From a bacterium (lineage in GTDB: Bacteria > Auribacterota > Erginobacteria > Erginobacterales > DAOSXE01): a stretch of DNA of 64,000 nt. The notes under the pieces were generated by a model, which had not been told where the DNA came from, did no database searches, and saw only the letters and a program-made list of their open reading frames with translations. Numbering within the stretch: position 1 is the first letter of the stretch; the number at the start of each line of letters is the position of its first letter. Positions 6,345 through 21,812 of the stretch are shown piece by piece. The DNA lies in assembly GCA_035380285.1 (NCBI GenBank), contig DAOSXE010000015.1, positions 1,927-65,926 of the forward strand, written 5' to 3'. The position numbers and the translations under genes are program-made.

Positions 6345-6373
6345 TTGACATTATGGAGGGAAAATGGTAATAT
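6345..6373 (+). promoter_or_regulatory. Sigma-70-type promoter candidate for the 6412 gene
   Basis: TTGACA (6345-6350), 17-nt spacer, TAATAT (6368-6373). A GGAGG Shine-Dalgarno sits ~8 nt before the ATG at 6412. Confidence 0.5.
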
Positions 6374-6411
6374 TTAAATCAGTCCATTCAATCCTTAACG
6401 GAGGCTCTTTC

Positions 6412-8775
6412 ATGCAAAAGTCTTGGTGGGCAGCAGCGGCGGCAACGGTCCTGATTCTCGCGCCCGGGGAATCCGGGGCGGCCGGCTACGTTCCCGACTA
6501 CTCCACCTACCTGGGCGGCGGCCTCAACGATACCGGCGGCGATATAGCCGTCGAAGACGGTTCCGTCTATGTCTGCGGAATGAGCGCGTCCGCCGATTTC
6601 CCCACCGTCGCACCCTACCAGGCGGGACTGCCCGGGTTCATCAACGCCGTCATCTCCCGTTTCGATTCGGACGGGAACCTGGTCTTTTCCTCCTACCTGG
6701 GAGGCTCGACCATCGACGCCGGTATCGGGGTCGCCGTCGATGAAGGGGCGGTCTGCTTGGTCGGCTATACGATGTCGTTCGATTTCCCCACCGTCGACCC
6801 CTGCCAAGCGAACCTGGAGGGTTTTCTGGACGCTTTCGTGGCTCGTTTCGACTCCGGGGGCGACCTGATCTTTTCTTCCTACCTGGGAGGGTCCGACGAA
6901 GAGCAAGCGTTCGGTGTCGCCGCCTCCGGCGGCGACATCTACATCGCCGGATTCACCACCTCCACCGACTTCCCCGTCGTCGGAGCATGGCAGCCCGCTC
7001 TGGCCGGGGGAACCGACGCCTTCGTCGCCCGGTTCCAATTCAACCCTTCCAGCAGTCTGGCCTATTCCTCCTACCTGGGAGGGACGGGAGACGACAACGC
7101 CGAGGGTATCGCGGTGGATGGAGGCGTGCTTGGAGTAGGCGGCTACACCGATTCCCTCGATTTTCCCACCAGCGACCCGCTGCAGGGCGCCCTGGCGGGA
7201 GGCTGGGACGGATTCGTTTCCGCTATCGACTTAAACCCCTCGGGCAGCCTGGTTTTTTCGTCGTACCTGGGCGGGAGCGAAGACGATTACGTCTTCAGGA
7301 TCGCCGCCGATAACGAAACCCTCTACCTGAGCGGATCGACGGATTCGACCGATTTTCCCACCGTCAACCCATTTCAGGCCTTCCTGGGCGGCAATGCCGA
7401 CGGCTTCGCCGGAGCCATCGCGCTCAACCCCTCGGCCGCCCTGATATTCTCCTCCTATCTGGGCGGCTCCGGCGACGACGACGCCACGGGGCTGGCCGTC
7501 GAAGACGGAGACATCATTCTGACCGGAGACACCGATTCCCAGGATTTTCCCACTGCCCATCCGTTCCAGCCGGGAACGGCCGGTGGCTTCGACGCCTTCG
7601 CCGCCCGCCTGGCTCTCTCCCCCGCCACGGCCTTGGTCTTTTCGTCATACCTGGGGGGAAGCGGGGACGACAGCGCCATGGGTGCCGCCGCCGAAGACGG
7701 CATCATCTATCTGGGGGGCTGGACCGAATCCACCGACTTCCCGACCGTCAACCCCTTCCAAGCCGCGGCGGCGGGAGGGGCCGATTTCTTCGTCTCCCGT
7801 CTGGTACCGGCCCCACCGACCCCGACCCCGACCGCCAGCACCGCACCCACCTGTTCCCCCAGCGCGACGCCGACGGCCGCGCCCTCCTTCTCTCCCACCC
7901 CCTTCCTCCCCTCACCCCCCACCCCCTCCCCGACCCCATACTCCTCGCCGACGCCCGCCGGGCCTCAGCCCACACCTTCCGCGGCACCGGCCACTCCTCC
8001 CTTCCTGGTTCTGGGCGCCGGCGATTATTCCGGCAACGGCCGGAGCGACATCGCCGTTTTCCGCCCCGCCACCGGGGCATGGAAAGTGCGCGGCCTGGGC
8101 ACCACCTACTTCGGCGGCGGCACCGACATCCCGGTTCCCGGAGATTACGACGGCGACGGGGTCACCGACGTCGCCGTCTTCCGCCCTTCCCGCGGTCTAT
8201 GGTGGGCCAAGGGAGTCACTCGGCTTTATTTCAACCTCGGAGACATCGGTCCCGATACCCGACCCGTTCCGGCGGATTACGACGGAGACGGCAGAACCGA
8301 TCCCGGAATCTTCACCGCCGGAGCGGCTCTCTGGGCGGTCAAGGGCGTCAGCCGATTCCACTTCGGCGCGGCCGGCGACCTGCCCGTGCCCGGAGATTAC
8401 GACGGAGACCTGGCCGCCGACGTTGCAGTCTGGCGCCCCGCCACCGGCCTCTGGGCGGTCCGGGGGATAACCAGAAAATTCTACGGGGTCGACGGAGACA
8501 TCCCCGTCCCCGGCACTTACACCTGGTACGGGGGCGGGGGCGGCCCCTTCCGAACCGAATTCGCGGTCTTCCGACCTTCCCGGGGAGTCTGGCTGATCAG
8601 CGGCGGTCCCAAATACTACTTCGGCGTGACCGGCGACCGTCCTCTTCCCGGTAAATACGTCGGGGGCGAACACGACACCCTCGGCATCTTCCGGCCCCCG
8701 ACCGGGCTTTGGGCCTTGCGAAGCATGACCAAGGTCTTCTACGGCCTTTCCGGAGACGATCCGGTTACCCGGTAA
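6412..8775 (+). CDS. Secreted repeat protein: SBBP-type beta-propeller repeats + Pro/Thr linker + FG-GAP/VCBS-like repeats
   Basis: Start chosen at MQKSWWAAAAATVLILAPG (signal peptide, good RBS). About 8 repeats of FSSYLGGSxxDxxxGxAVDxGxxYxxGxTxSxDFPT, a PTPTP-rich linker, then about 7 repeats of GDYDGDGxxDxAVFRPxxGxW. Confidence 0.75.
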   Translation: MQKSWWAAAAATVLILAPGESGAAGYVPDYSTYLGGGLNDTGGDIAVEDGSVYVCGMSASADFPTVAPYQAGLPGFINAVISRFDSDGNLVFSSYLGGSTIDAGIGVAVDEGAVCLVGYTMSFDFPTVDPCQANLEGFLDAFVARFDSGGDLIFSSYLGGSDEEQAFGVAASGGDIYIAGFTTSTDFPVVGAWQPALAGGTDAFVARFQFNPSSSLAYSSYLGGTGDDNAEGIAVDGGVLGVGGYTDSLDFPTSDPLQGALAGGWDGFVSAIDLNPSGSLVFSSYLGGSEDDYVFRIAADNETLYLSGSTDSTDFPTVNPFQAFLGGNADGFAGAIALNPSAALIFSSYLGGSGDDDATGLAVEDGDIILTGDTDSQDFPTAHPFQPGTAGGFDAFAARLALSPATALVFSSYLGGSGDDSAMGAAAEDGIIYLGGWTESTDFPTVNPFQAAAAGGADFFVSRLVPAPPTPTPTASTAPTCSPSATPTAAPSFSPTPFLPSPPTPSPTPYSSPTPAGPQPTPSAAPATPPFLVLGAGDYSGNGRSDIAVFRPATGAWKVRGLGTTYFGGGTDIPVPGDYDGDGVTDVAVFRPSRGLWWAKGVTRLYFNLGDIGPDTRPVPADYDGDGRTDPGIFTAGAALWAVKGVSRFHFGAAGDLPVPGDYDGDLAADVAVWRPATGLWAVRGITRKFYGVDGDIPVPGTYTWYGGGGGPFRTEFAVFRPSRGVWLISGGPKYYFGVTGDRPLPGKYVGGEHDTLGIFRPPTGLWALRSMTKVFYGLSGDDPVTR

Positions 8776-8867: not shown

Positions 8868-8925
8868 GTTGCGCCCCTGTCCCCGTTTCGACGAGCCGGA
8901 CGGGGCCAACACGCGGAGCAATGCG

Positions 8926-11019
8926 ATGACCAGAGAAATACCAATCGAAAAAGTCCGAAACATCGGGGTCATGGCCCACATCGACGCCGGGAAAACCACG
9001 GTGACGGAACGCATCCTTTTCTTCACCGGCCGCAGCCATAAGATCGGAGAGGTACACGACGGCGAAGCGACCATGGACTGGATGGTTCAGGAACAGGAAC
9101 GCGGGATCACCATCACCTCGGCGGCCACCACCGCCTTCTGGAAAGGCCATAGAATCAACATCATCGATACCCCGGGCCACGTCGACTTCACCGCGGAAGT
9201 CGAGCGTTCGCTCCGGGTCCTGGACGGGACCGTCGCTCTCTTCTGCGCGGTGGGCGGCGTCCAGCCCCAGTCGGAGACGGTATGGCGCCAGGCCGAGAAA
9301 TACATGGTCCCGCGTATCGCCTTCATCAACAAGATGGACCGGATCGGGGCCGATTTCGACGGCGTGGTGAAGGAAATCGAGGTGACCCTGGGGGCCAACC
9401 CGGTTCCGATCGTGATCCCGATCGGGGCGGGCGCGGAATTCGAAGGCGTCGTCGATCTGATCGAGATGAAGGCGATTTTCTACGACGAGGCGCCCGTCGG
9501 GGCGCGGATCCGGGAAGAAGCCGTTCCGGCCGAGCTCAGGGAAAGAGCGGAAGCCGCCCGGGAGTTTTTAGTCGAACGGGTCAGCGAACAGGACGACGCC
9601 CTCATGGAGAAATACGTGGGGGGACAGGAACCCTCCCGGGACGAACTGACGGCGGCCCTGCGCGGGGCCGTCATCCGCGGGGAGGTCATCCCGGTCCTCT
9701 GCGGCGCCGCGTTCAAGAATAAGGGCGTCCGCCGGCTGCTCGACGCCATCGTCGATCTTCTCCCCTCCCCCCTCGACCTGCCCCCGGCCATCGGCACCCG
9801 CAAGGAGGAGAACAAGGAGATCATCCGCCACCCTTCCGAGGACGCCCCGCTGGCCGCCCTGGCCTTCAAGATCATGGCCGACCGGCACCTGGGGAAACTG
9901 ACCTACCTGAGGGTCTACTCGGGGGTGCTCGCCAACGGGTCGTTCGTCTTCAACTCCAACCTGGAAACCAGGCAGCGGGTGGGGCGGATATTCCTCATGC
10001 ACGCCAACAAGCAGCAGGCGGTCGACAATTTGAGAGCCGGCGAGGTGGGGGCGGTGGTCGGCCTGGCCGAGACCAGGACCGGAGACACCGTCTGCGACGA
10101 GGCGCACCCCATCATCCTGGAAAATATCGATTTCCCCGCCCCGGTGATCGGGGTGGCCGTGGCCCCCGCCAGCCGGGCGGACCGGGATCGCCTGGCGGCG
10201 GCCCTGAGCCGCCTGGCCGACGAAGACCCCACCTTCACCGTCCGCACCGAAGAGGAGACGGGCGAAGTGATCATCTCGGGCATGGGCGAACTGCACCTCG
10301 AGGTCATCGTCGATCGGCTCAAGCGCGAATTCAACGTCGCGGTCGAAGTCGGGCAACCCCAGGTCGCCTACCGGGAGACGATCCTGGGGGATATCGAGCA
10401 CCGTTACCGCCACGTCAAGCAGACCGGAGGCCACGGCCAGTTCGCCGACATCATCTTCCGGATCGAGCCGGGCCAACCCGGCGAAGGCTTCCAGTTCTTC
10501 AACGAAATCCGGGGGGGGAACATACCCCGGGAATACATTCCTTCGATCGAACGCGGGGTGGTCGACGCCATGGCCCAGGGACCCTACGCCGGATTTCCCA
10601 TGGTCGACATCGTTTATACCGTCCTGGACGGATCGGCCCACGAAGTCGACTCCTCGGACATGGCCTTCCGCACCTGCGCCGCAGTCGGCTTCAAGGAAGC
10701 CTGCCGCAAGGCGGGCCTGCAGCTTCTGGAACCGATGATGAGCGTGGAGATCGTCACCCCCGAAGAATATATCGGCCCCCTGACCGGGAGCATCTGTTCC
10801 AAGCGGGGAAAGGTAACGAGCCTGATCCACAAGGCCACGCACTGCGTCCTCGCGGGCCAGGTGCCCCTGGCCAACATGTTCGGCTATTCCTCGGAACTGC
10901 GCACCATCACCAGCGGCCGCGGCGATTTTTCCATGCATTTCGAACACTACGCCGCCGTGCCCTTCTCCCTGGCGGAGGAGATCGTGGAACGACGGCGCCG
11001 GGAAGAGAAAATTCCCTGA
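8926..11019 (+). CDS. fusA: Translation elongation factor G
   Basis: [34 protein letters not shown] and a full-length EF-G layout. Start chosen at [12 protein letters not shown] (8926); the track ORF starts at 8869. Confidence 0.95.
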
Positions 11020-11088
11020 AGCGGCGGCCGCGAGGGGGCCCGGCGGAAAAAAACCGGCTCCCCGGGGGAGGGAACCGGTCGTGGAGCT
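10915..11088 (+). repeat. Direct repeat copy 1 (174 bp): authentic fusA 3' end + spacer + 7 nt matching the tRNA-Ala 3' end
   Basis: By base-by-base reading it is identical to 21573-21746. It covers the last 34 fusA codons plus stop, 62 nt of spacer and TGGAGCT. Confidence 0.9.
11047..11078 (-). terminator. Hairpin + T7 terminator copy inside repeat copy 1, positioned to terminate the island operon
   Basis: Same sequence as 21705-21736. On the minus strand CCGG..CTCCC-CCG-GGGAG-CCGG is followed by TTTTTTT. Confidence 0.4.
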
Positions 11089-11281: not shown

Positions 11282-12310
11282 CTACGGCACCATCCTCGCG
11301 AAGTAAGGGTAGAGACGAGAGTACCGCTCGTAGTTGCTCATCTTGGCGATACTAACTTCCTCCGAGTCATCACCCTCAGTTAGATACCCTAGAGCGGTAA
11401 CACATACTGTCCCGTCTCCCGTTTCGGTCGGCAGAATTTCTTCGAGCTTCAGACGCTCCTTCGTGCTCAGCACCGGAACATCGATCTCATCGATCAAGCC
11501 CGAAGCAGTCACATAGAGGGGGCTCGTAGCCTTAAAGTGACCAAGCAACGCATCTCGGTTATTCTCCGGACAGAACACCCCTGTTATGCTTAACATAATT
11601 GTACCATCCGAGTACTTTGCCACCTGTAGCGGAAGAAAAGTCTTCGGCTTACTGCAAGCGCTCTCCAGAACCGATAGCACCATATGACTGAGCAACCATG
11701 GGAAGTTCTCCTCTTTGAAGTTCTCCCATGTGAACAGGTCATGGTCATAGGATACTTCTGCGACTGTCATGGCCTTCAGGTAATCATCTCGAAACTCATT
11801 GAAATCTTTCTTCTTGTAGGACGGAAGTATCTGCTGATGGCGCCGAAGCTTGACCTCCCTATATACCGGGGTCTCCGCCATGAGCGTTACCCGCAGCACA
11901 CTCCATTCAAGAGCCTGACGTGCGATACCGGACACTTCTGTCAACTCTTGTCGCCCAGCATCAACGTAATCCACCCACACAATCGTTGGTTTTTCGCTGG
12001 GAAACAGCGTTGACAGGAATTCCTCAAACCGACAGGACAGAAGTTTCACTTTTTTTGAACACTGGTGGAATTTCTGTCGCCTGTACGTCTCACCATCACT
12101 CTCAACCGACACCATGTCAAGGTTCGGGAACACGTTGCTCAGCAACCTGAAGTCTTCAAGAAACGGACCTCCAAACCCGATATACAAATGCTCTTTCAAG
12201 CTATGTGTGAGTTCAAACGTACGCAGCAACTCGACCAAGACCAAGCGATCAATAGCCTTGTTGGATCGCAAATGATATGCTGGATGTTTTGGTTTTCTGA
12301 GCCAGGTCAT
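11282..12310 (-). CDS. Hypothetical protein, last gene of the island operon; N-terminus weakly Rossmann/methyltransferase-fold-like
   Basis: 342 aa. The start overlaps the upstream gene by 4 nt. The pattern LYIGFGGPF ... MVSVESD ... VKLLSCRFEEFL ... TIVWVDYVD resembles beta1-beta4 of a class I MTase fold. I recognise no catalytic motif. Confidence 0.5.
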   Translation of the reverse strand: MTWLRKPKHPAYHLRSNKAIDRLVLVELLRTFELTHSLKEHLYIGFGGPFLEDFRLLSNVFPNLDMVSVESDGETYRRQKFHQCSKKVKLLSCRFEEFLSTLFPSEKPTIVWVDYVDAGRQELTEVSGIARQALEWSVLRVTLMAETPVYREVKLRRHQQILPSYKKKDFNEFRDDYLKAMTVAEVSYDHDLFTWENFKEENFPWLLSHMVLSVLESACSKPKTFLPLQVAKYSDGTIMLSITGVFCPENNRDALLGHFKATSPLYVTASGLIDEIDVPVLSTKERLKLEEILPTETGDGTVCVTALGYLTEGDDSEEVSIAKMSNYERYSRLYPYFARMVP

Positions 12311-13740
12311 TCCCTCGCCTCCTCAAGGATCACGTCAAAGCACCTCGCCCCAACATTGGATGGATTTCTGTCGGGGCTATCAAAGATGTACTGTGAAACA
12401 CGACGCACATCCCTGACAGCACGGGTAAAGACTATTCGCTCCGTCGTCTTCTTCTTGTCCGGTCGCGGTAACACAGGTTTGTACTGTTTGCCTTTCACGG
12501 CACCGCGCGTCGCAGTCATGTGCAATTTCAATGCTCGAGTTCGAATCTCGTCAAGCGTCGCTTTGTGTGTTGATCTCATCTCACATCGAGACTTGGCAAC
12601 GAGATCCTTACCTTTCCATTGGTTAGTGTACTGAGTGAACATCTTTGTTCCCTCAATCATCTTGTCACGCACCTGCAGGTAAAGAGGAGATGAGGCCTCG
12701 ATCCCTCTTTTGGTTGTCGTCATAGGCAAGAGATTCGCGTCATCCGCACTGAATATGACAATCCCCGATATCGCAATGAATTGCATGTGGTATTGCGGCA
12801 CTCCCGAAACTCCCCACCCAGTCAAAGGCGTCTTGTCACAGTAAACTACAGTTCGGTCGTTGCAGATCACAGTCCACCCGGCCTCTGCAGAAGAATACCG
12901 CTCCTTGTAGTTCTCAAGGCCTTCGTCTGCCTCCTCTCGGCTGGGGATCGGGCTCGTGAAACCCACAACAAGGAACACATCAACCCCATCGTGTTTCCCT
13001 TCGTAGATAAAGGGCATTATCGGGTGCTTCGATCTCACCGCTTCCTCCGCGAATAGCAGGCTTATGCTCCTAGGAGTTACCGCCTTTCCGTTGATACGGA
13101 CTTCAAACCCCTTGCCAATGATGTACGCATAGTGCGTCGCTACGGCCTCACGAAACGCTCTCTCAAAGGCTCCGGATTCGAATTCCGTACGCACGGATGA
13201 GTAAATACTTCTGATTTCAAGTGTGGTACCAAGAGTTTCTGCTGGCTTGATCGCGACTACGGGAATCAACCAGTCATCCTCTTTTGATATCCACTGCGGT
13301 GATAGCCGCAAACGGTAAGAACCGTCCTTCGCATGTGTTCTGATTGTGCAGTCCGCTCCCATCTTGAAGATGGCGCGCTTCATCCCAATTCCATACGTAC
13401 CGATGGTTTTTTTCCCCTTGTCTATGTCCGCTTTAATCCGTCCCATGCGAAAGGCGTAGTCATGGTATCTCACCGGTATCCCCCCACAGTTGTCTTCAAT
13501 CCTGAAGCGCGTCCCGTCAAACTCAATACTTGCCCAATATCCCTCGTATGGGAGACGCCTAGAAAGTTGCCGTTTCGTTTCAGCCCGCTGAATACCATCT
13601 ACACAGTTATCCAGCAGATCCAGGATCGCATCCTGAAGCTCGATGTCCCTTGTTAGCATATGTACGAAAAACGACTTGACCGGATTGGCCGGAATGTGTG
13701 GGATCTTCCTAAGATGCATCTGAGTAACCTCCTTATTCAA
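12307..13740 (-). CDS. GHKL (Bergerat-fold) ATPase, MORC-like / HATPase_c_3 type
   Basis: N-box AILDLLDNCVDG, G1 box EDNCGGIP, G2 box IGTYGIGMKRAIF. 477 aa, with a ~220-aa uncharacterised C-terminal half. Confidence 0.75.
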   Translation of the reverse strand: MNKEVTQMHLRKIPHIPANPVKSFFVHMLTRDIELQDAILDLLDNCVDGIQRAETKRQLSRRLPYEGYWASIEFDGTRFRIEDNCGGIPVRYHDYAFRMGRIKADIDKGKKTIGTYGIGMKRAIFKMGADCTIRTHAKDGSYRLRLSPQWISKEDDWLIPVVAIKPAETLGTTLEIRSIYSSVRTEFESGAFERAFREAVATHYAYIIGKGFEVRINGKAVTPRSISLLFAEEAVRSKHPIMPFIYEGKHDGVDVFLVVGFTSPIPSREEADEGLENYKERYSSAEAGWTVICNDRTVVYCDKTPLTGWGVSGVPQYHMQFIAISGIVIFSADDANLLPMTTTKRGIEASSPLYLQVRDKMIEGTKMFTQYTNQWKGKDLVAKSRCEMRSTHKATLDEIRTRALKLHMTATRGAVKGKQYKPVLPRPDKKKTTERIVFTRAVRDVRRVSQYIFDSPDRNPSNVGARCFDVILEEARE

Positions 13741-14914
13741 TAAACTCCTTCATGCGACTAAGTACGCTTTCTGCCAGAATCGGGCTGATGCTATTCCCGA
13801 TCTGTCTAAAGCTGTGCCACTTCGTCGAGTCGAACTGGAACCAGTCGGGGAAGCCCTGCAACCGGGCCGCTTCCCGGGGAGTAATGACGCGCGGCTCTGT
13901 GGGGTGAATTGGCCGAAGGGCTTGGTAGCTTCCATGCTCCGGGTCTGAGCCCGATCTTAGAGTCGGACAGAACCCCTTCCGTGCCAAACGCACAGCTCGC
14001 GAAGGCCCGTCAATGGCTCCCTCCGCCAGCTTGGCGAATCTCTCCAGAACGGTTTTCGTATGCCGTGTACCAAGACAGCCTGAAACGCGGTTCTCGTCTT
14101 GCAAGCGCCTAATCGCCTCCAGATCGCCAACACCCTCTGGTATCTTGTCGCGAATCCTTTCCCAAAACGGGCCGCTGTTGTGAGGCGTTACTGTGCGCCA
14201 ACTCTGGGCTTCTTGCTGCCACTCAGGACTGATCTTCTGGCGAAGACCTAGAAGTGCCGTCCCAACGTTGACTTTCGCGACGTTGGCAGGGGGCGCAAAA
14301 CAATCCTTCGTCAACCCGTTCGCACGCCCCACAACAATACCAATAAAGAACACTCGTTCTCGACTTGTTGCCGCGCCGAAATCCGATGCTTTGAGAATAA
14401 TAGGACCGAGGTTTATGTAGTTAGCCACTCTGGCCAACGCATTCGCGCGAACTTCGTCGAATTGAGAGTCCCGTATGCCTAGCACGTTCTCAGCAATGTA
14501 AAACGTGGGTTGAAGCTCCGCCACCAACCGAAAGAAGTGGTCGAACAGGTTGTTGCGCGCGTCATTTGGTTTGCGGCGACCGATTCGACTAAAACCCTGG
14601 CATGGCGGTCCACCGATAACCCCATCAATTCCGTTGATGTCGATTTGGGCCTTCTCAATAAGTTCTGCGCCTGTGAGTTCAGCAATGTTTGCATCAACGT
14701 ATTCGTATTTAGGGAAGTTCTTCTTGAAAGCGGATTTGGCTTGGGCATTGTTATCCACGGCTGCGGCAATCTGGAAGCCTGCGCGCGCTGCACCGAGAGT
14801 CAACCCTCCCACACCGCAGAACAAGTCAATGACCGTCGGCATACCTTCTGTTCCCTTCGCCGTTTTTCTGTTACCCGTGAAGCTCAGATCCGTCTCTATT
14901 CTTAACTGTATCAA
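13733..14914 (-). CDS. dcm: DNA (cytosine-5)-methyltransferase
   Basis: Motif I DLFCGVGGL, motif IV GGPPCQGFS, motif VI ENV, motif VIII SRERVFFIG, motif X QIGNSISP. The true start may be the internal MPTVIDLF. Confidence 0.9.
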   Translation of the reverse strand: MIQLRIETDLSFTGNRKTAKGTEGMPTVIDLFCGVGGLTLGAARAGFQIAAAVDNNAQAKSAFKKNFPKYEYVDANIAELTGAELIEKAQIDINGIDGVIGGPPCQGFSRIGRRKPNDARNNLFDHFFRLVAELQPTFYIAENVLGIRDSQFDEVRANALARVANYINLGPIILKASDFGAATSRERVFFIGIVVGRANGLTKDCFAPPANVAKVNVGTALLGLRQKISPEWQQEAQSWRTVTPHNSGPFWERIRDKIPEGVGDLEAIRRLQDENRVSGCLGTRHTKTVLERFAKLAEGAIDGPSRAVRLARKGFCPTLRSGSDPEHGSYQALRPIHPTEPRVITPREAARLQGFPDWFQFDSTKWHSFRQIGNSISPILAESVLSRMKEFIE

Positions 14915-15313
14915 TCACAGGCACTCCTCAAATCCATCTTCTGAAAGAATCGCTAGCCTTCCCCCTCTGCGAATCCAAGTGGCTATTCTCTTCACATCTC
15001 GGCCTTCACCAAACGCTGGGGTGCGCCTCCGAACGGCGCATTCCCAAATCACGAGAACACGCCAGCCCATATCTAGCAGTTTGCCTCGCACGCACAAATC
15101 TCGCAATCTGTTGCGTTTAATCTTCTTATTCCAAAACTGCTGATTGCTCTTTGCCTTCGGCCTTCGACCACATTCATGCCCATGCCAGTAGCATCCGTGG
15201 ACGAACACAACAGTCTTATGCCCGGCTAGAACAATGTCAGGTCGGCCCGGTAGATTCCTGGCGTGTAACCGATACCTAAAGCCTTCTCCAAACAGCGTCC
15301 TACGCACCTCCAT
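14915..15313 (-). CDS. vsr: Very-short-patch repair endonuclease (N-terminally short)
   Basis: GFRYRLHARNLPGRPDIVL...VFVHGCYWHGHEC...FWNKKIKRNRLRD...GWRVLVIWEC is the Vsr signature. It abuts the dcm start. Confidence 0.85.
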   Translation of the reverse strand: MEVRRTLFGEGFRYRLHARNLPGRPDIVLAGHKTVVFVHGCYWHGHECGRRPKAKSNQQFWNKKIKRNRLRDLCVRGKLLDMGWRVLVIWECAVRRRTPAFGEGRDVKRIATWIRRGGRLAILSEDGFEECL

Positions 15314-15386
15314 TTCCGGGCCTGTGTTTTTCCCCGATTCGCAGCCATGATCTTGTGCCGAGTCTCAGCATTTACTCGGTCCACCA

Positions 15387-15653
15387 TCAAGACTTCCCTG
15401 CCCTTTTGTCCCGTTGATGCACTTTGTTATGACAAACGATGCACAATGTCTTCAGGTTCCCTTCAATATTTACGCTGCCCTTCACGTGATGCTCGATGTG
15501 ATGCAACTCCAAGTGTCGCGGATCGAACGGGTTCCATTCGTCGTGCGCCCACGCGCAAAACCGGCACTTGTCCCCGTCGCGCCGAAGCAACGGAAGCAAG
15601 CCGAACACACAGTTCAATCGCTTGTCCGACATAGAGATGTGGGGCGACCGCAA
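15387..15653 (-). CDS. Small HNH endonuclease
   Basis: CRFCAW...LELHHIEHHVKG...NLKTLCIVCHNKVH (HNH/Zn-ribbon pattern). 88 aa. It overlaps the 3' end of the upstream gene by 40 nt, or 19 nt from the internal Met. Confidence 0.75.
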   Translation of the reverse strand: MRSPHISMSDKRLNCVFGLLPLLRRDGDKCRFCAWAHDEWNPFDPRHLELHHIEHHVKGSVNIEGNLKTLCIVCHNKVHQRDKRAGKS

Positions 15654-16720
15654 CCTGCAATCTCACCAACCGCCTGACCGACAACAGCGTATGTGTCATA
15701 GCTCGGTATCCGGAGCATTGGACCGGTGAAAGACGCACAAAGAAGAGGTACTCGTTCGCGTAGATGTGCAGACCCCAAATCTCCTCCGCCAATCTTCACA
15801 CCATGGTCAGCCACTACGAACACCCAATCGCCAGAACGAAGAAAATCCAAGAATGACTGTAGAAAAGCGTCAAACCGCTCAAGGGTTCGCCAGCACGCCG
15901 ATGCATCTCCCATGTGGGCATAACGGTCAAAATCCTCCAGATTGACCATGATAAATGCCTCGTCCTCCGCCGCTGTAACCTCTGCATTCAACAGCTCAAA
16001 GCACTGCTCGTCTCGCTCAGTTCGTACTGCCATATTCGCTGGCAAGGATAGGATTTCCTGCACCTTGCCGTTGACTATCCGTCTCCATCCAAGCGGCACG
16101 AATTTCTGCAGCAGAGACTCTCCATCGATCATCTGAAAGAAGTCACGCCGTAGTTCTTCAACCGGTTCTCCGCCACGCAACGGTCTTGCAAGCACCTTCT
16201 TCACGCATAACTCCGCTGATGCATCCAACATGCAGCGGAGTGCCTGTGCGACTTTATATAGACACTCACGGGGCACGACAATTTCATCTGCACTCACGAC
16301 CACAGTGCTGTCGAGCCCCCTATAGAGCATTATTGCCCCAGTTTGCAAATGTTCGAGCCACAACTCCGGGAGAACATCCCTGCCCCTTCCCTGTTTGTTG
16401 CCAATCAACTTAACTCCACAATTATTGCCAAGCTTCATCAGAACATCACGCGGTAGCGGTTCCGAGGGTATAGGGTGAGGTTGTTTAGTTATCCATCCGA
16501 ACATCTCGCGATGTCCTTCCTCCGATCCCACCGCGACTGACGCTTGTCTCATCACATGTCCACGACCCGTGACCGCAGCATCCAATCCCATATTAAAAAG
16601 GACTGGAAGAACGGAGATTTTGCGGCCGTACTGTTCGCACAGAGTCCCTAGGGTGCTGGTCTCACCGCCGTCAGGAGCAACTCCAAAACCATCTACAACG
16701 ATCACAAAAACGCGCGACAT
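15614..16720 (-). CDS. Phosphopentomutase (DeoB)-like metalloenzyme of the alkaline-phosphatase superfamily
   Basis: Blocks are collinear with E. coli DeoB as I recall it: RVFVIVVDGFGV (RAFIMVLDSFGIG), GHREMFG (SGHWEIAG), VLARPL (VIARPF), NLEDFDRYAHMGD (NFVDFDSSWGHRRD), VVADHG (LTADHG), HLRERVPLL (HTREHIPVL). Confidence 0.7.
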   Translation of the reverse strand: MSRVFVIVVDGFGVAPDGGETSTLGTLCEQYGRKISVLPVLFNMGLDAAVTGRGHVMRQASVAVGSEEGHREMFGWITKQPHPIPSEPLPRDVLMKLGNNCGVKLIGNKQGRGRDVLPELWLEHLQTGAIMLYRGLDSTVVVSADEIVVPRECLYKVAQALRCMLDASAELCVKKVLARPLRGGEPVEELRRDFFQMIDGESLLQKFVPLGWRRIVNGKVQEILSLPANMAVRTERDEQCFELLNAEVTAAEDEAFIMVNLEDFDRYAHMGDASACWRTLERFDAFLQSFLDFLRSGDWVFVVADHGVKIGGGDLGSAHLRERVPLLCASFTGPMLRIPSYDTYAVVGQAVGEIAGCGRPTSLCRTSD

Positions 16721-18534
16721 CAGGATTCAAATTTTCTGATTCGCAGGTTAACGAATTCAACAACTTTCCGCCAAAGACTGGCGATTGAAACTTTGCTGCC
16801 AAGCGAGAGTTCTCCTTCATACTGAAGAAGAAGAGGAATGATCGGTATAGTTACCTTTAGCTTGTCCGTAACAGAAATATCAGACTTCAGCACAGTGGAA
16901 GTAACGGAGACCCGTTCTGCGACCTTAGGCAAAATGGCTGAAGATTTTATGGTGTCACAGAGCGTCGCTAACACCTCTCTGGATTCTTCAAGCAGCGCTT
17001 TCATCTCCTCTGTTTCAGGCTCATGGTCCATCGCTGAGACGAATGACTCGACAACAACATCCCGGGCCGTTCTCGCCTCTGATACCGCCTCTGTAGCAGC
17101 GATCTTCCCTGCCATCTGAAGTTGTTCGTATTCCATGACAGACGCGACGACTCTGCCCCGTATCTCTAGGATATCTTCCTCAAGCCGCTGGATGCTTTTG
17201 GGTCGGTCCTCGACTCTCAGGGTATCTTCAGTGCGTTTGAGAAGGACGAAGTCCTTGCGTAGATTATCCCGAATATCTTCCAGCCTCTGTTTCTCTACCG
17301 GTATCCCGTTAGCCACTGTTTCGTCCTTCCTCTCTTCACAGGATCTGGGAACGCCGACGATTCTCCTCACATCGGTCAGAATATCCTTTGGGGCCGATGC
17401 CTCGGAGACAGCGCCAAGAATATGCACCAATGCTGTCACGCTCGAACGTATCCGCTCTGGGTCCGAAAGCAACCCGCGTCCCATTTGAATCATCACGTCC
17501 GCACCAAATGTCTCAACGTTCTGAAATATTTCTTCGAGGAAAATACTTCCCGAAGAAACAGCGAAGCATGGTCTGAGACCATACTGATCGCCCTGTAGCT
17601 TTTCGATTTCCTCCTTCAATATTGCTTGCTCATACGGAAAATCCTGGGTGAACGGCCCTGTGTAGACAGCATCTCCACCTGCAAGTCGCGAAAGTAGGGC
17701 AATTACCTGCTCCGCTAGGTAGTGCGTGCTCTTGCGCGTCAATACACCCCGGCCGATGTTGTTCACAACGAATGCTGTCTGACCATCACACGTATCGATC
17801 ACATGCCTGACAGCCGAAAAACCCATCGCGATACAGTTGAGGGTAAAACCACAAACGCCATGGCGCTGTCCATCCTCGACCAAGCGCAAGGATGTCTCCA
17901 CATCTGCGGTTGCATTCATGAAGTAGCCCAACTTGCGCCCCGTTTTCTCTTGGGCTGCAGTAACTACGGTTTCAATGGCCTGTGCGCGTTGTCCAAATGG
18001 ACTACAACTTGGGGACACGAGCAACTCGTCGTCAATCACGTAGTCAACACCACCCTCCAATGCTCTTTGCACTGTTGGGAGAATATCAGATAGACTCATG
18101 CGCAACCGCGGTTTCAGGATGAGCCCCAGAAGCGGCCGTTGGGAAACACCAAGAAGCTTCCTAATCCCTGATACACCATACCTTGGCCCCTTGTATTCAT
18201 CGAGGCAAACTTTGGGCAATGCCAGATCCACCACGGCAAATCGCTTCAGCGCTGAAAAGACAGAGCAATAGCACACACTCCCTAGGAGCATGGCGAGACC
18301 CGTACCAAGTCCAGCAGAACAAGGCGGCAGGGACAAAAGCACTTCAAGCTCGTTCTTGGATTGATCAATCTCACGAACATCGAGAATCTCTGGGTCTTCG
18401 TGAAATTCACAAGGCTCATCGGTACGTCGCAGCGGAATCGTTCCGGTGCTGCCTAGATCCATCGCAGCGAGGAGTTGCTTCAGCCCCTTCTCACGGTTTT
18501 CTAGGATCATGTGAAGTGTTACAGTTGCATGCAT
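16720..18534 (-). CDS. Divergent RuBisCO large-subunit-like protein (RLP) with ~240-aa C-terminal extension
   Basis: N-domain AAMDLGSTGT. Barrel blocks GPRYGVSGIRKLLGVSQRPLLGLILKPRL, GGVDYVIDDE, TGRKLGYFMNAT, LSRLAGGDAVYTG, AVSSGS, MIQMGRG are collinear with RuBisCO/RLP blocks. IDDE replaces KDDE. Confidence 0.75.
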   Translation of the reverse strand: MHATVTLHMILENREKGLKQLLAAMDLGSTGTIPLRRTDEPCEFHEDPEILDVREIDQSKNELEVLLSLPPCSAGLGTGLAMLLGSVCYCSVFSALKRFAVVDLALPKVCLDEYKGPRYGVSGIRKLLGVSQRPLLGLILKPRLRMSLSDILPTVQRALEGGVDYVIDDELLVSPSCSPFGQRAQAIETVVTAAQEKTGRKLGYFMNATADVETSLRLVEDGQRHGVCGFTLNCIAMGFSAVRHVIDTCDGQTAFVVNNIGRGVLTRKSTHYLAEQVIALLSRLAGGDAVYTGPFTQDFPYEQAILKEEIEKLQGDQYGLRPCFAVSSGSIFLEEIFQNVETFGADVMIQMGRGLLSDPERIRSSVTALVHILGAVSEASAPKDILTDVRRIVGVPRSCEERKDETVANGIPVEKQRLEDIRDNLRKDFVLLKRTEDTLRVEDRPKSIQRLEEDILEIRGRVVASVMEYEQLQMAGKIAATEAVSEARTARDVVVESFVSAMDHEPETEEMKALLEESREVLATLCDTIKSSAILPKVAERVSVTSTVLKSDISVTDKLKVTIPIIPLLLQYEGELSLGSKVSIASLWRKVVEFVNLRIRKFES

Positions 18535-18543
18535 AATCGATCC

Positions 18544-19113
18544 TTAGTGCTTAACGTCAATGACTTTGCCATCTACAAGAAAGGTTCCGCTCGTCAAGTG
18601 GTACACCTGCGGTATTGCACTTCTCAGTTTTATCTTATCCTCTGAGAACAATTCTTTATCGATATCTGCTGCAACGACCAATCCAACAACAACGTGGTGG
18701 TTTCCTGCCTCCTTGTGCCATTGCAGCTTACATTCCAGATTGACTGCACATTCTGCTATCCGCGCGGGCTTCACCTTGTTCCTCGCATATGGTGTCAATC
18801 CCGTTTCCTCAAACTCATCCACGGCCGGCGGATACTCGTTAGCAGCCTGGTAAAGTTGAGTCAGAATCTTGCTCGTAGGAATTCCTACCACAAACTCGCC
18901 GGTCTTTGAGATATTCTTGAAGGTGTCAGACTTTGGCGAGATACCAAGCGCAACCATCGGGGGGCACGTCGAACACGGCGTGAACATAGCGTAGGGTGCC
19001 AAGTTCTTAACCCCCGCTGTGTCGACCGTTGACACGAGTACAACAGGGGACGGCTGAACCAAGTAGACAACTTTTGCAACTTTGTCTAAGACCTCGATCT
19101 TCTGATACTTCAT
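18544..19113 (-). CDS. Flavin reductase-like (FMN-binding split-barrel) protein
   Basis: 189 aa. PSPVVLVSTVDTAGVKNLAPYAMFTPCSTCPPMVALGISPKSDTFKNISKTGEFVVGIP matches the flavin reductase-like domain pattern. Confidence 0.7.
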   Translation of the reverse strand: MKYQKIEVLDKVAKVVYLVQPSPVVLVSTVDTAGVKNLAPYAMFTPCSTCPPMVALGISPKSDTFKNISKTGEFVVGIPTSKILTQLYQAANEYPPAVDEFEETGLTPYARNKVKPARIAECAVNLECKLQWHKEAGNHHVVVGLVVAADIDKELFSEDKIKLRSAIPQVYHLTSGTFLVDGKVIDVKH

Positions 19114-21059
19114 CTTGTATCTCCTCTCATCTGATCTACCATTTCAACCAAATCCGCAAAAACAAGGTCTGGCCGGGAATCATGCGTGCGTCGAGCCACA
19201 TCTTCAGCAGTACTTATCCCTCCAAGAACAAGGCAAGCCAACGCTCCAGCCTTTCTGGCTGCTGCTATGTCAGTATCGAGCGAATCCCCAATTACGGCTA
19301 CCTCTTGCGGTTTCATACCCATAAGATGAAGTAGAAGGCGAAGCGAGAAGTCATTTGGTTTCCCCACGACAAAGGGCGATTTGCCAGTTACTGTTTCAAT
19401 TGCAGCCACAATCCAGCCAGTTCCGGGCTTGTCCATACCCGGAGCAGCGAACACACGATCCCGGTCCGTGCATACGAACTCCGCACCCTTCAAAATTGCT
19501 CGCTGGGCTGCCACTAGGTCGGCATATATGAAATCCTTTGAATAGCCAACGACAACTGCGTCAATGTAACCAGTGTGATCATTGGCGGCGATATCCATGC
19601 CACCGCAGGCGAGCAACTCAGGTAGTGCTGGTGCTCCACCCAGCACCAAGCAACACCTGTATCCCTTAGTGCGGCAATACTCGGCAGCGGCAATAGTGGA
19701 CGTCATGATATGCCGCGGGTCCGCTATCACGGCCATCTGGCCGAGTTTGTCTGCTAACTCCTGCTGCCTTCTTACGCTCGTGTTTGTCAAGAAGCCAACT
19801 GTAACGCCAGATTGTCGCAAAATGCGAATGGCCGCGAGGCTGGCTTCTATCGGCTTGTCTCCTTTATAGAGAACACCGTCGAGATCCAGCACAACTCCCC
19901 GTTTTGAAGCCAGATCCCGCAGCTTATCCGTGGACTTTACTGGCACCCTCGGATGGCGTGGCTCGCGTGGGCGTGAACATTGGATCGTATAGAGCGACCT
20001 CACGGCGGTATTCCAGGATAGCTTGTACTCTTCATGGCCGCGCATGAAATCAACTTCCTGTAGCCCGTTATCGCAAGCCCATCGAATCGCTTCACCCAAT
20101 AGCACTAGCCCCGGAGAACAATCGTCTAACGCCAAATCAAAGGATGTGTTCCAGTCATAGTATCTGCCACCACGGATGAAGCCCATCCGATAAGCAACTA
20201 TGTTGCCGTTCAGAAGCAGATGAAAAAGACAGAAATTCCCGGTTCCGGCGAAATCTTTCGCAACGTCATGAATGAAGCCTCTGCGCCTTGTGTCGGCAAA
20301 TGCTTGGACTCCGTGAATACTGTCCCAACGAGTATCATGGAGATCAAATAGACGTTCGAGGGTTTCATGGTCGTAATCCCGGACAACTTGGAGTTCTACC
20401 TTGCCGCGGCGGCGCAGAGCCCGCATCTTGCGGTTCAGCATTCGCCGCCGGTTTCTTGTCCGTGACTTAAGATACTTATCCCAAGAACAACCAAGTTCTA
20501 TATACGGCGCATCCTCTGCCCTGACAATAACCGGTGATAGACCGCAATCTTGAAGTGCACGTGTTACAATGTGCAAGGTGACGTCATCTTGCCGTATGTT
20601 TTGTAGCCTTATTTCATCCCATTCCAAATGGTCGCACATCGCGGCTGCGATGCGGTCGATAGGATCACATGCAAAGGCCGAGAAGACTCCGCCTAGGTAG
20701 TCACTACAACAATCAGAAAGAAGCGTAAGGATCGTATGGGATCCTACGCGTTTGCGCATCAGAGGCAGAATGGCAAGAACGTCATCTCCCAGCGCGGCCC
20801 AGAAGATGGACAATTCCCTGTCAGAACCGAAGTGGCCCCACCAGTACGAAAGCCAACGTGGATCAACCGAGACTGGAAGGTTAGGCTGTTTTTCAAGGAT
20901 CTTAACCCAGTGAGGGTAGATTGCGGACCACTCCTCATTGCTCCTCACAACACCGACCTGGGCCCTACGATAGTCGCGTTCCGTCGACATGTAGTTACGC
21001 AGGGAATATTGCCAACTTGTCTGTGATGCATCCAGCCAGCTATCGCTGCACATCATCAC
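19110..21059 (-). CDS. Fusion protein: GNAT-type (FemAB/CelD-like) acyltransferase + HAD-IIA (NagD-like) phosphatase
   Basis: The N-terminal ~360 aa end in VDFMRGHEEYKLSW (CelD/BioF2-like GNAT pattern). The C-terminal part has VVLDLDGVLYKG, FLTNTS, VGKPN and IGDSLDTDIAAARKAGA, which are HAD motifs I-IV of the IIA subclass. Confidence 0.7.
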   Translation of the reverse strand: MMMCSDSWLDASQTSWQYSLRNYMSTERDYRRAQVGVVRSNEEWSAIYPHWVKILEKQPNLPVSVDPRWLSYWWGHFGSDRELSIFWAALGDDVLAILPLMRKRVGSHTILTLLSDCCSDYLGGVFSAFACDPIDRIAAAMCDHLEWDEIRLQNIRQDDVTLHIVTRALQDCGLSPVIVRAEDAPYIELGCSWDKYLKSRTRNRRRMLNRKMRALRRRGKVELQVVRDYDHETLERLFDLHDTRWDSIHGVQAFADTRRRGFIHDVAKDFAGTGNFCLFHLLLNGNIVAYRMGFIRGGRYYDWNTSFDLALDDCSPGLVLLGEAIRWACDNGLQEVDFMRGHEEYKLSWNTAVRSLYTIQCSRPREPRHPRVPVKSTDKLRDLASKRGVVLDLDGVLYKGDKPIEASLAAIRILRQSGVTVGFLTNTSVRRQQELADKLGQMAVIADPRHIMTSTIAAAEYCRTKGYRCCLVLGGAPALPELLACGGMDIAANDHTGYIDAVVVGYSKDFIYADLVAAQRAILKGAEFVCTDRDRVFAAPGMDKPGTGWIVAAIETVTGKSPFVVGKPNDFSLRLLLHLMGMKPQEVAVIGDSLDTDIAAARKAGALACLVLGGISTAEDVARRTHDSRPDLVFADLVEMVDQMRGDTR

Positions 21060-21064
21060 TCCTG

Positions 21065-21262
21065 TTACTTGCTTTTTTCTTCCCGGGCGGCGAGATTCTC
21101 CTCAATCATGCGTGACACAATCCAAGAGAGCGAACGCTCCTCTTTCTCCGTCAACTCTTCCAAGATTTCTTAGACTTGCGGGGTAACTCGGACGCTCAGG
21201 AGTTTTATTTTCAGTTCAACCTTGTGCCTTTTCGTAGGGTGTACGACGTCATGCATTTGCAT
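21065..21262 (-). pseudogene. Ribbon-helix-helix (CopG/Arc-like) regulator gene interrupted by an in-frame TAA
   Basis: My translation is MQMHDVVHPTKRHKVELKIKLLSVRVTPQV*EILEELTEKEERSLSWIVSRMIEENLAAREEKSK*. The internal TAA is at 21170-21172. The strand-helix-helix pattern is continuous across the stop. The gene ends 5 nt before the 649-aa gene, which has an AGGAG RBS. Confidence 0.55.
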
Positions 21263-21330
21263 GCTGATTTTAATAATATATGATGTGTATGCTGTGTGAT
21301 GATAGTAGAAAGAAGAAGGATCCGATAAAC
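21263..21330 (-). promoter_or_regulatory. AT-rich putative promoter region of the island operon
   Basis: This is the most AT-rich stretch in the window (minus strand ...CATCATATATTATTAAAATCAGC-ATG). Several TATATT/TATTAT -10-like hexamers lie just upstream of the RHH start. I found no clear -35 or SD. Confidence 0.25.
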
Positions 21331-21572
21331 TGCTTTCTGTATGCCCATTAGTCGATTGATTAGTCCACCCGTCAGATGCTATAAATTGAGGCGCAGGTCA
21401 CGGGACTTTTGGAGTATGCCCAGAAGGAACGTCTGCATCGTGGAGAAGTTTACGGAATTCATGACAGCATGGAAACCGGGCTGACCGGTTTTCAATGCAA
21501 TGATGGATCGGGGAGTCAAATGCGCTGCTCGCGTGGCTCCCTGACCGCTTCGGGCGTAACCCACTCGGCGGG

Positions 21573-21677
21573 GGCCGCGGCGATTTTTCCATGCATTTCG
21601 AACACTACGCCGCCGTGCCCTTCTCCCTGGCGGAGGAGATCGTGGAACGACGGCGCCGGGAAGAGAAAATTCCCTGA
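21573..21677 (+). pseudogene. Orphan 3' fragment of fusA (last 34 codons + stop) inside repeat copy 2
   Basis: It encodes [34 protein letters not shown]. The upstream sequence in the same frame has no resemblance to EF-G. Confidence 0.85.
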
Positions 21678-21704
21678 AGCGGCGGCCGCGAGGGGGCCCG
21701 GCGG

Positions 21705-21736
21705 AAAAAAACCGGCTCCCCGGGGGAGGGAACCGG
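21705..21736 (-). terminator. Rho-independent terminator candidate downstream of tRNA-Ala
   Basis: On the minus strand a hairpin (outer CCGG/CCGG, inner CTCCC-CCG-GGGAG) is followed by T7 (plus-strand A-run 21705-21711). It starts 4 nt after the tRNA 3' end. Confidence 0.45.
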
Positions 21737-21739
21737 TCG

Positions 21740-21812
21740 TGGAGCTGAGGGGATTCGAACCCCTGACCCCATGGCTGCCAGCCATGTGCTCTCCCAGCTG
21801 AGCTACAGCCCC
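21740..21812 (-). tRNA. tRNA-Ala (anticodon GGC)
   Basis: A 73-nt cloverleaf folded by hand: acceptor GGGGCUG/CAGCUCC with the G3:U70 alanine identity pair, D-arm GCUC-AGCUGGGA-GAGC, anticodon loop CU-GGC-AG, T-arm AGGGG-UUCGAAU-CCCCU, A73. No CCA is encoded. Confidence 0.95.

Follow-up and report, generated by a model that had tools for sequence, protein, structure and literature searches.

Within a 64,000-nt stretch of contig DAOSXE010000015.1 (assembly GCA_035380285.1) from a bacterium of the Auribacterota, the whole of which we refer to as the window, an island of low G+C content carries an operon of four genes whose last member encodes a phosphopentomutase (PPM)-like protein, the subject of this study. 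The operon, of about 5.4 kb and hereafter called the cassette, encodes in order a fusion of a FemX-like protein to a HAD phosphatase, a flavin mononucleotide (FMN)-binding protein, a RuBisCO-like protein (RLP) with a long C-terminal tail and, finally, the PPM-like protein; coordinates are collected in Table 1. The last two genes are tightly joined. The plus strand reads CATCA at positions 16718-16722, hence TGATG in the direction of coding, and the RLP stop codon (TGA, 16722-16720) therefore shares a base with the ATG of the PPM-like gene (16720-16718), just as had been read from the letters in an earlier description of this DNA made without database searches (the original prediction). Among 10 independent cassettes the same junction is an overlap, of 4 nt or 1 nt, in seven, and a gap of 2-7 nt in the remaining three.

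The likeness of the 368-residue product to Escherichia coli DeoB, which the original prediction had recognized, is borne out along the full length of the protein. The NCBIfam phosphopentomutase model NF003766 aligned residues 1-356 with profile positions 3-381 of 396 (E = 1e-42), the NCBIfam deoB model TIGR01696 matched with E = 1e-31, and the Pfam Metalloenzyme family PF01676 with E = 1.6e-17 (64.3 bits, gathering cut-off 24.3). Similarly, chains of the Bacillus cereus PPM in the PDB matched residues 3-360 with E values of 7e-30 to 6e-29, against 0.28 for the best chain of a cofactor-independent phosphoglycerate mutase (iPGM). Identity with E. coli DeoB is 26-27%. The iPGM/ApgM models of NCBIfam reached E = 2e-5 at best, and only over the C-terminal metal-binding core (residues 233-332), and Phosphodiest, matched weakly by Pfam as a second family (E = 6e-4), stayed under its cut-off. 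The PPM profiles beat every other branch of the superfamily by more than 25 orders of magnitude. We therefore rejected iPGM, sulfatase, PglZ and phosphodiesterase as the true family, no branch other than those named above having been matched. Within the alkaline-phosphatase superfamily, the protein is of the phosphopentomutase type.

Residues of the active site were compared in an alignment of 31 sequences, comprising the window protein, nine other RLP-linked homologues, E. coli DeoB and 20 ordinary PPMs. All six metal ligands are kept in the window protein: D10 (in VVDGFG), D265 together with D263 and followed by H269 (in DFDRYAH), D305 and H306 (in ADHG), and H319. The ligand blocks that the original prediction had named are present and align with DeoB and the 20 PPMs, none of the ligands being lost. 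Furthermore, the window protein has five residues that are invariant in the 20 ordinary PPMs (D137, S138, R179, R191 and K219), and its cap domain and all PPM-specific blocks (IGN.QGRG, Y..DS, ARP and GK) can be aligned from end to end.

The original prediction had also suggested that the nucleophile may be changed, as the corresponding segment reads GSEEGH. An ungapped count back from the conserved Gly-His pair puts Ser66 on the Thr of KDTPSGH in DeoB and of KDTMTGH in B. cereus, where it corresponds to Thr85, the phosphorylated nucleophile. The PDB set includes a PPM variant altered at exactly this position (KDEMTGH), and several ordinary PPMs read KDS, that is, they carry Ser there. A Ser also occupies the nucleophile column in 10 of the 10 RLP-linked members. 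Loss of the nucleophile was rejected on the strength of both the ungapped count from the Gly-His anchor and the alignment of 31 sequences. As judged from these alignments, the replacement of Thr by Ser66 is conservative, because ordinary PPMs too have Ser at this point, and the predicted nucleophile is kept in kind. The divergent segment is thus real, but the true change lies one residue earlier, where Asp has become Gly. Ser is also the nucleophile of iPGM. From its sequence, the PPM-like enzyme is divergent yet apparently active.

In comparison with DeoB and the B. cereus PPM (3M8W, 4LRA), the PPM-like protein has the same fold and domain layout over a full-length alignment, the same six ligands, a hydroxyl at the nucleophile position and the same cap blocks. 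However, it is only 26-31% identical to them, scores below the equivalog level, reads xGS in place of KD(T/S), and is never found beside deo genes but always after an RLP gene in a mobile cassette. With iPGM and ApgM it shares the superfamily and an alignable C-terminal metal core, but its cap is of the PPM type and it does not have the iPGM transferase domain.

The RLP encoded immediately upstream is itself unusual. Its RuBisCO large-chain catalytic domain (PF00016) spans residues 121-377 (E = 2.7e-24), and Pfam gave no match to PF02788 in the short N-domain. Its closest relatives in both sequence and structure are type III RuBisCOs (best Foldseek matches 8dht/3a13), and its residues were accordingly mapped on the type III enzyme of Thermococcus kodakarensis. 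RuBisCO residues K175 (K141 in the RLP), D203, E204, R295 and S379 are kept, as is the Gly-rich phosphate loop (GGG/GRG). K177 has become Arg, the carbamylated K201 has become Ile (I167, in the motif YVIDDE in place of KDDE), H294 is Gly, H327 is Tyr and the loop-6 Lys (K334) is absent. Because K177, K201, H294, H327 and the loop-6 Lys are all lost, carboxylation by the RLP is excluded. The protein scored 141 bits against the form III RuBisCO model (cut-off 497) and 150 bits against the general RuBisCO large-subunit model (cut-off 438), and a carboxylating RuBisCO was rejected on these cut-offs as well as on the active-site residues. The two MtnW models gave 105 bits (cut-off 409) and 83 bits (cut-off 514). 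The same residue losses also exclude the Mg-carbamate enolase or isomerase chemistry of MtnW and of other characterized RLPs; to our knowledge, the Mg-carbamate site is used by every characterized RuBisCO and RLP.

This loss is a property of a larger group. The K201 position is Ile or Val in all long members of the RLP family, whereas the nearest ordinary RLPs keep KDDE, and at least about 70 of the top 170 profile matches (P0053-P0070 and others) form a clade that has x-DDE (x being I, V, A, T, F, M and others) for KDDE but retains KPR. We found no description of this K201-less clade, or of the four-gene cassette, in the literature that was searched in full text. The tail of the window RLP, approximately residues 380-604, is about 220 residues long and is modelled as all-helical (AlphaFold2, mean predicted local distance difference test score 73.5; helices 413-603). 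It ends in KL..(I/L)PIIP..L.Y, in which K, L, P, I, I, P and Y are invariant in nine of the nine members aligned. The kinship with type III RuBisCO recalls the archaeal AMP/pentose-bisphosphate pathway, which also ties nucleotide-derived pentose phosphates to a protein of the RuBisCO fold, but the cassette has neither an AMP phosphorylase nor a ribose-1,5-bisphosphate isomerase, and the RLP has its extra helical tail.

The FMN protein is of the flavoredoxin-like type, with an FMN-binding protein (1eje) as its best PDB match (E = 1.3e-26), and the start of its gene overlaps the end of the gene upstream by 4 nt (19110-19113). In the FemX-like–HAD fusion, the true start of which may lie about 25 codons further in than the one called, a FemX-like tandem GNAT region (approximately residues 30-365) is followed by a NagD-type HAD-IIA phosphatase (approximately residues 385-645). 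In structure, the GNAT half comes closest to Sbb17, a peptide synthase that depends on aminoacyl-tRNA and was solved with streptothrisamine bound; next in rank are FemX, FemA, a mycobacterial tandem GNAT and MprF/L-PGS. With FemX/FemA, MprF and Sbb17 it shares only 10-14% identity, and the attached HAD-IIA domain sets it apart from them; use of aminoacyl-tRNA by the fusion is putative. The HAD half is similar to NagD and to sugar phosphatases. Among the matches listed, the GNAT–HAD-IIA fusion occurs only in this cassette. Upstream of the operon lies a non-coding leader, which contains no minus-strand open reading frame (ORF) of 65 or more codons and is the presumed promoter region; a promoter scan returned one weak sigma-70-like match (21300-21273), which did not exceed shuffled sequence. 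As the original prediction had proposed, the locus does resemble a route for phosphorylated sugars, and the PPM-like gene is tightly coupled to that of the RLP.

What had gone unnoticed is that the four genes travel together. The same order is found in about 10 lineages: in the window (also assembled as loci L016 and L017), L001-6, L007/L012, L009, L010, L014 (Ruminococcus sp. JE7B6, CP162391, with the PPM-like gene at 11686-12765), L021, L022, L026 and L030. Across these cassettes the RLPs fall from 58% to 31% identity and the PPM-like proteins from 50% to 26%, yet the gene order and the tight junctions persist. Close relatives of the PPM-like protein (at least 33% identity) occur only within the same cassette, and the sole one in a set of 5.8 billion clustered proteins has 50% identity and stands in the same four-gene arrangement. 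The tailed RLP is similarly scarce. When 1.84 billion representative proteins were searched exhaustively with a profile, about 10 full-length clusters at 50% identity were obtained; the score then drops from 442 bits to 264 bits, the next matches being shorter RLPs, likewise without K201. A scan of 185,579 species genomes gave four loci. Among the cassettes the G+C content spans 0.24-0.56 and is in most cases lower than in the flanks. Locus L014 has a large serine recombinase and looks like an integrative element, and L021, with ParA, resolvase and Rep genes, looks like a plasmid. No member of the family was found in the viral contigs of IMG/VR or among the INPHARED phages, none of the four proteins matched PHROGs, and the plasmids of PLSDB gave only ordinary RuBisCOs and RLPs of less than 30% identity and without the tail; an origin of the cassette in phages or plasmids was rejected on these results. 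The cassette is rare, conserved and horizontally mobile between distant bacteria.

Variants of the cassette show which parts are constant. In L026 an FGGY sugar kinase gene follows the PPM-like gene after 4 nt. The type B loci L027 and L013 (Maridesulfovibrio) have no PPM-like gene; instead, genes for a Thymidylate_kin-like P-loop kinase and a NUDIX hydrolase precede those for the GNAT(-HAD) protein and the tailed RLP. In L029 the PPM-like protein, GNAT, HAD, FMN protein and short RLP each have a gene of their own, and after these comes one for a small protein with several transmembrane segments. Short RLPs of about 420-450 residues that lack the carbamyl-lysine are followed by such a conserved small membrane protein, of 113-133 residues, with mutual E values down to 1e-13. 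The helical tail of the long RLPs was considered as a fused copy of this membrane protein and the idea was rejected (profile search, E > 0.1). More distant K201-less RLPs (L031-33) lie beside SIS, glyoxalase, His_Phos_1, methyltransferase, FGGY-kinase and amidohydrolase genes. The constant core is thus an RLP with a GNAT and/or HAD domain, usually accompanied by the FMN protein, while the entry module is of two kinds, the PPM-like enzyme, which a sugar kinase may accompany, or a kinase together with a Nudix hydrolase. Two further observations concern these loci. In L015 the gene after the small membrane protein encodes a 482-residue protein without a Pfam match. In L013, downstream of the type B cassette, lie two near-identical tandem ORFs of about 1350 codons that share the same N-terminal sequence.

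We consider it somewhat probable (roughly 0.55) that the PPM-like protein is a catalytically competent, divergent mutase of the phosphopentomutase type, different from DeoB and encoded by the last gene of a mobile four-gene RLP operon. Such an enzyme would hold a binuclear Mn2+ site and, by way of phospho-Ser66 and a bisphosphate intermediate, would shift phosphate from one hydroxyl to another on a sugar phosphate of the pentose type. Most likely, it would supply or interconvert a phosphosugar that is bound or converted by the RLP, and so would serve a dedicated pentose-phosphate or nucleotide-derived pathway; in the sister cassettes the Tmk-like kinase and Nudix hydrolase would carry out that same task. 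The main basis for this pathway role is the exchange of entry modules, which fits both of them delivering the same phosphorylated pentose or nucleotide-derived intermediate. Sugar-phosphate or nucleotide chemistry is also suggested by the FGGY kinase gene of L026, by the separate genes of L029 and by the SIS, His_Phos_1 and FGGY neighbours of the more distant K201-less RLPs, and the RLP retains the phosphate-binding framework of RuBisCO (K175, R295, S379 and the GGG/GRG loop).

Several points weigh against a competent mutase that serves the RLP. First, the change of Asp to Gly just before the nucleophile is found in 10 of the 10 RLP-linked members, and the preceding Lys is Val or Ala in proteins of type A (the window type), so that the Lys-Asp of the K-D-(T/S)-x-x-G-H motif reads Val-Gly in the window protein. 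Two N-terminal segments of DeoB are deleted as well (368 residues against 390-407 in DeoB and the B. cereus PPM). Furthermore, residues that are constant in ordinary PPMs are altered in some orthologues: the invariant R191 is Glu in L022 and L026 and Ile in L009, which also has D10 changed to Asn and Gly-His to Gly-Val, and K219 is Ile in L029. Because the basic residues vary in this way, there may be a difference in substrate or even in the chemistry of the mutase. The scores, too, are low (146.3 bits on NF003766, equivalog cut-off 256; 110.2 bits on TIGR01696, equivalog cut-off 341.2), and lie well under both equivalog cut-offs; the protein is not a DeoB equivalog and belongs to a distinct subfamily. 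In addition, neither a nucleoside phosphorylase nor any other source of ribose-1-phosphate is encoded in any of the loci. Finally, without the Mg-carbamate site the RLP may not be an enzyme at all, which weakens the idea of a PPM-like enzyme feeding it.

The cassette of the window lies within a well-delimited island. Between about 11.0 and 21.8 kb of the window the G+C content drops from about 0.65 to about 0.51, and this 10.66-kb segment has at its two ends the copies of a perfect direct repeat of 174 nt (family D1, 100% identity), spaced 10658 nt apart. The left copy takes in the end of fusA and the right copy abuts or overlaps the 3' end of a tRNA-Ala gene, with a terminator-like hairpin at 21738-21710. 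No integrase or transposase is encoded between the two copies. The island is made up of nine genes in the same direction, four of which form the cassette; none of the other five (11282..15653) recurs beside the cassette at other loci. As a check against a chimeric island, two independent assemblies (L016 and L017) were compared: they carry the identical cassette and the junction on the tRNA side, but both contigs end inside the left repeat, so that the junction on the fusA side is documented by the assembly of the window alone.

Table 1. Positions of the cassette, of the island and its edges, and of features at related loci. Positions refer to the window unless a locus is named.
Feature	Position	Strand	Remarks
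fusA ORF	8869..11019		
Left repeat copy	10915..11088		last 105 nt of fusA and 69 nt downstream
Methyltransf_35 (putative O-methyltransferase)	11282-12310	minus	342 aa; Pfam
GHKL ATPase (HATPase_c_3)	12307-13740	minus	477 aa; Pfam
Dcm C5 cytosine methylase	13733-14914	minus	Pfam; PADLOC MTase_II
Vsr (nicking endonuclease)	14915-15313	minus	Pfam, PADLOC
HNH	15387-15653	minus	88 aa; overlaps 3' end of PPM-like gene by up to 40 nt; PADLOC ZorE-like HNH match
PPM-like gene	15614..16720	minus	368 aa; ATG start
RLP	16720..18534	minus	604 aa; short N-domain, TIM-barrel domain, helical C-terminal extension
FMN protein	18544..19113	minus	flavoredoxin-like FMN-binding split-barrel, 189 aa; PF01613, E = 2.1e-26
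FemX-like–HAD fusion	19110..21059	minus	649 aa as called
Non-coding leader	21060..21572	minus	presumed promoter of cassette
Right repeat copy	21573..21746		abuts/overlaps 3' end of tRNA-Ala; holds its terminator hairpin
tRNA-Ala(GGC)	21739..21812	minus	ARAGORN; island edge
Secreted-looking protein	6364-8775	plus	803 aa
Small multi-transmembrane protein after short RLP	L015 5674-6015; L025 1372-1719; L029 11323-11724		
Large HD-CE protein	L022 7375-9786	minus	
Large HD-CE protein	L010 254-3301		
Tandem ORFs downstream of type B cassette	L013 12037-20231	minus	

Two features of the window stand apart from the cassette. The GHKL ATPase and Methyltransf_35 genes of the island have strong matches to the phage families phrog_20521 (543 bits) and phrog_19983 (152 bits) and match no PADLOC model; the pair may be an uncharacterized two-gene conflict module. 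Outside the island, in the high-G+C host genome and unrelated to the cassette, lies the gene for a secreted-looking protein, the N-terminal half of which consists of many repeats of about 50 residues (SSYLGG...D.A.G(I/V)AVD), followed by a linker rich in Pro, Thr and Ser and by GDYDGDG repeats.

What the cassette as a whole does is a wider question than the activity of its last product, and a tentative possibility, compatible with a divergent mutase, is that it is an unrecognized anti-phage (conflict) system that makes, modifies or destroys a pentose- or nucleotide-derived molecule upon infection. The PPM-like enzyme would then provide one step, and the K201-less RLP with its tail would act as sensor, scaffold or effector. 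In support of this, recognized defence genes, among them restriction, Druantia, GmrSD and CRISPR genes, lie within 10 kb of type A cassettes in several unrelated contexts. The neighbours are Dcm, Vsr and HNH in the window, a type III restriction–modification system with a GmrSD-like HEC-05 protein in L001/L002, Cmr2 in L003, DruA (594 bits) and HerA in L007, and NsnA/GmrSD-like, WYL and transposase genes in L030. HD-CE proteins are encoded in L022 and L010, the former locus also having UDG-Panacea and radical SAM genes. The cassettes of L014 and L021 are on mobile elements, the distribution is patchy and rare over a wide range of G+C content, and the short-RLP variants are followed by the small membrane protein. 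The pattern is suggestive and makes a defence role plausible, but it is only guilt by association, from about nine informative loci. The four proteins matched no PADLOC-DB v2.0.0 model at E <= 0.01 and no PHROG, and the cassette has no recognizable effector (nuclease, protease or pore-forming protein). In addition, the type B and C loci L013, L015 and L029 are without clear defence neighbours, the distant K201-less RLPs sit in ordinary-looking sugar-metabolism clusters, and mobile islands also carry metabolic and resistance cargo. A more specific proposal, that the cassette is a new anti-phage or inter-genomic conflict system acting through pentose-phosphate or nucleotide-derived chemistry, for example by way of an aminoacylated pentose or nucleoside antimetabolite or by removal of a metabolite that the phage needs, seems to us rather doubtful.

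The HD-CE proteins just mentioned are large and lie beside two unrelated copies of the cassette, and the one in L022 is fused to a GHKL ATPase domain. As a GHKL ATPase is also encoded in the island of the window, GHKL proteins may be loose recurrent partners of the cassette.

It is also possible, though we would not presume it, that the cassette is accessory small-molecule metabolism carried on mobile DNA, which either makes an (amino)acylated pentose- or nucleoside-like product or detoxifies or catabolizes such a compound; the PPM-like protein would then be an ordinary mutase of that pathway and would take no part in immunity. This would suit the kinship of the GNAT half with streptothrisamine-bound Sbb17, and then with FemX, FemA and MprF, as well as the likeness of the HAD half to NagD and sugar phosphatases and the FGGY kinase that joins the operon in L026. 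The company of related RLPs in SIS, His_Phos_1, FGGY and amidohydrolase clusters points the same way, as does the chromosomal, non-defence setting of L013. However, no transporter, regulator or further tailoring gene is conserved with the cassette, the long helical tail of the RLP would be unusual in a pathway enzyme, and defence genes recur among the neighbours.

We consider it improbable that the PPM-like protein is a phosphohydrolase or phosphodiesterase rather than a mutase, acting for example on a nucleotide-derived intermediate. The Phosphodiest match under its cut-off, the variation of basic residues that are invariant in PPMs, and the Nudix hydrolase and kinase that fill the slot in type B cassettes could be taken in its favour. 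However, the cap domain and the PPM-specific blocks align over the full length, the lead of the PPM profiles is large (more than 25 orders of magnitude), and the cassette already has a dedicated phosphatase in its HAD-IIA domain.

Lastly, a role as an ordinary DeoB of nucleoside catabolism, or in methionine salvage of the Bacillus type, where the original prediction had seen the pairing of the RLP enolase MtnW with the HAD phosphatase MtnX, is very improbable, the methionine-salvage analogy having been rejected on active-site residues and model cut-offs. In favour of such a role there are the homology to DeoB and the presence of an RLP and a HAD-fold phosphatase in one operon. Against it, the PPM-like protein scores below equivalog level and has close relatives only within the same cassette, the RLP has Ile for the carbamyl-lysine and falls under the MtnW cut-offs, the HAD domain is of type IIA and fused to a FemX-like protein whereas MtnX stands alone, and the foreign, low-G+C island holds neither deo genes (deoA, deoC, deoD) nor mtn genes (mtnA, mtnB, mtnD, mtnK), deoA, deoC and deoD being absent also beside the related cassettes in the loci examined.

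In summary, this work defines a separate subfamily of PPMs, marked by a Gly-Ser nucleophile motif and always encoded after an RLP gene, the substrate of which is likely to be something other than the ordinary ribose phosphates of nucleoside catabolism. The ligand or reaction of the RLP, once found, would extend the known functional range of the RuBisCO fold. If the cassette protects against phage, it would represent a new metabolism-based mechanism and, as a conflict system, would be the first instance of the RuBisCO superfamily serving in immunity, within a clade that has lost the carbamate-Mg2+ centre. Taken together, the four genes could represent something new.

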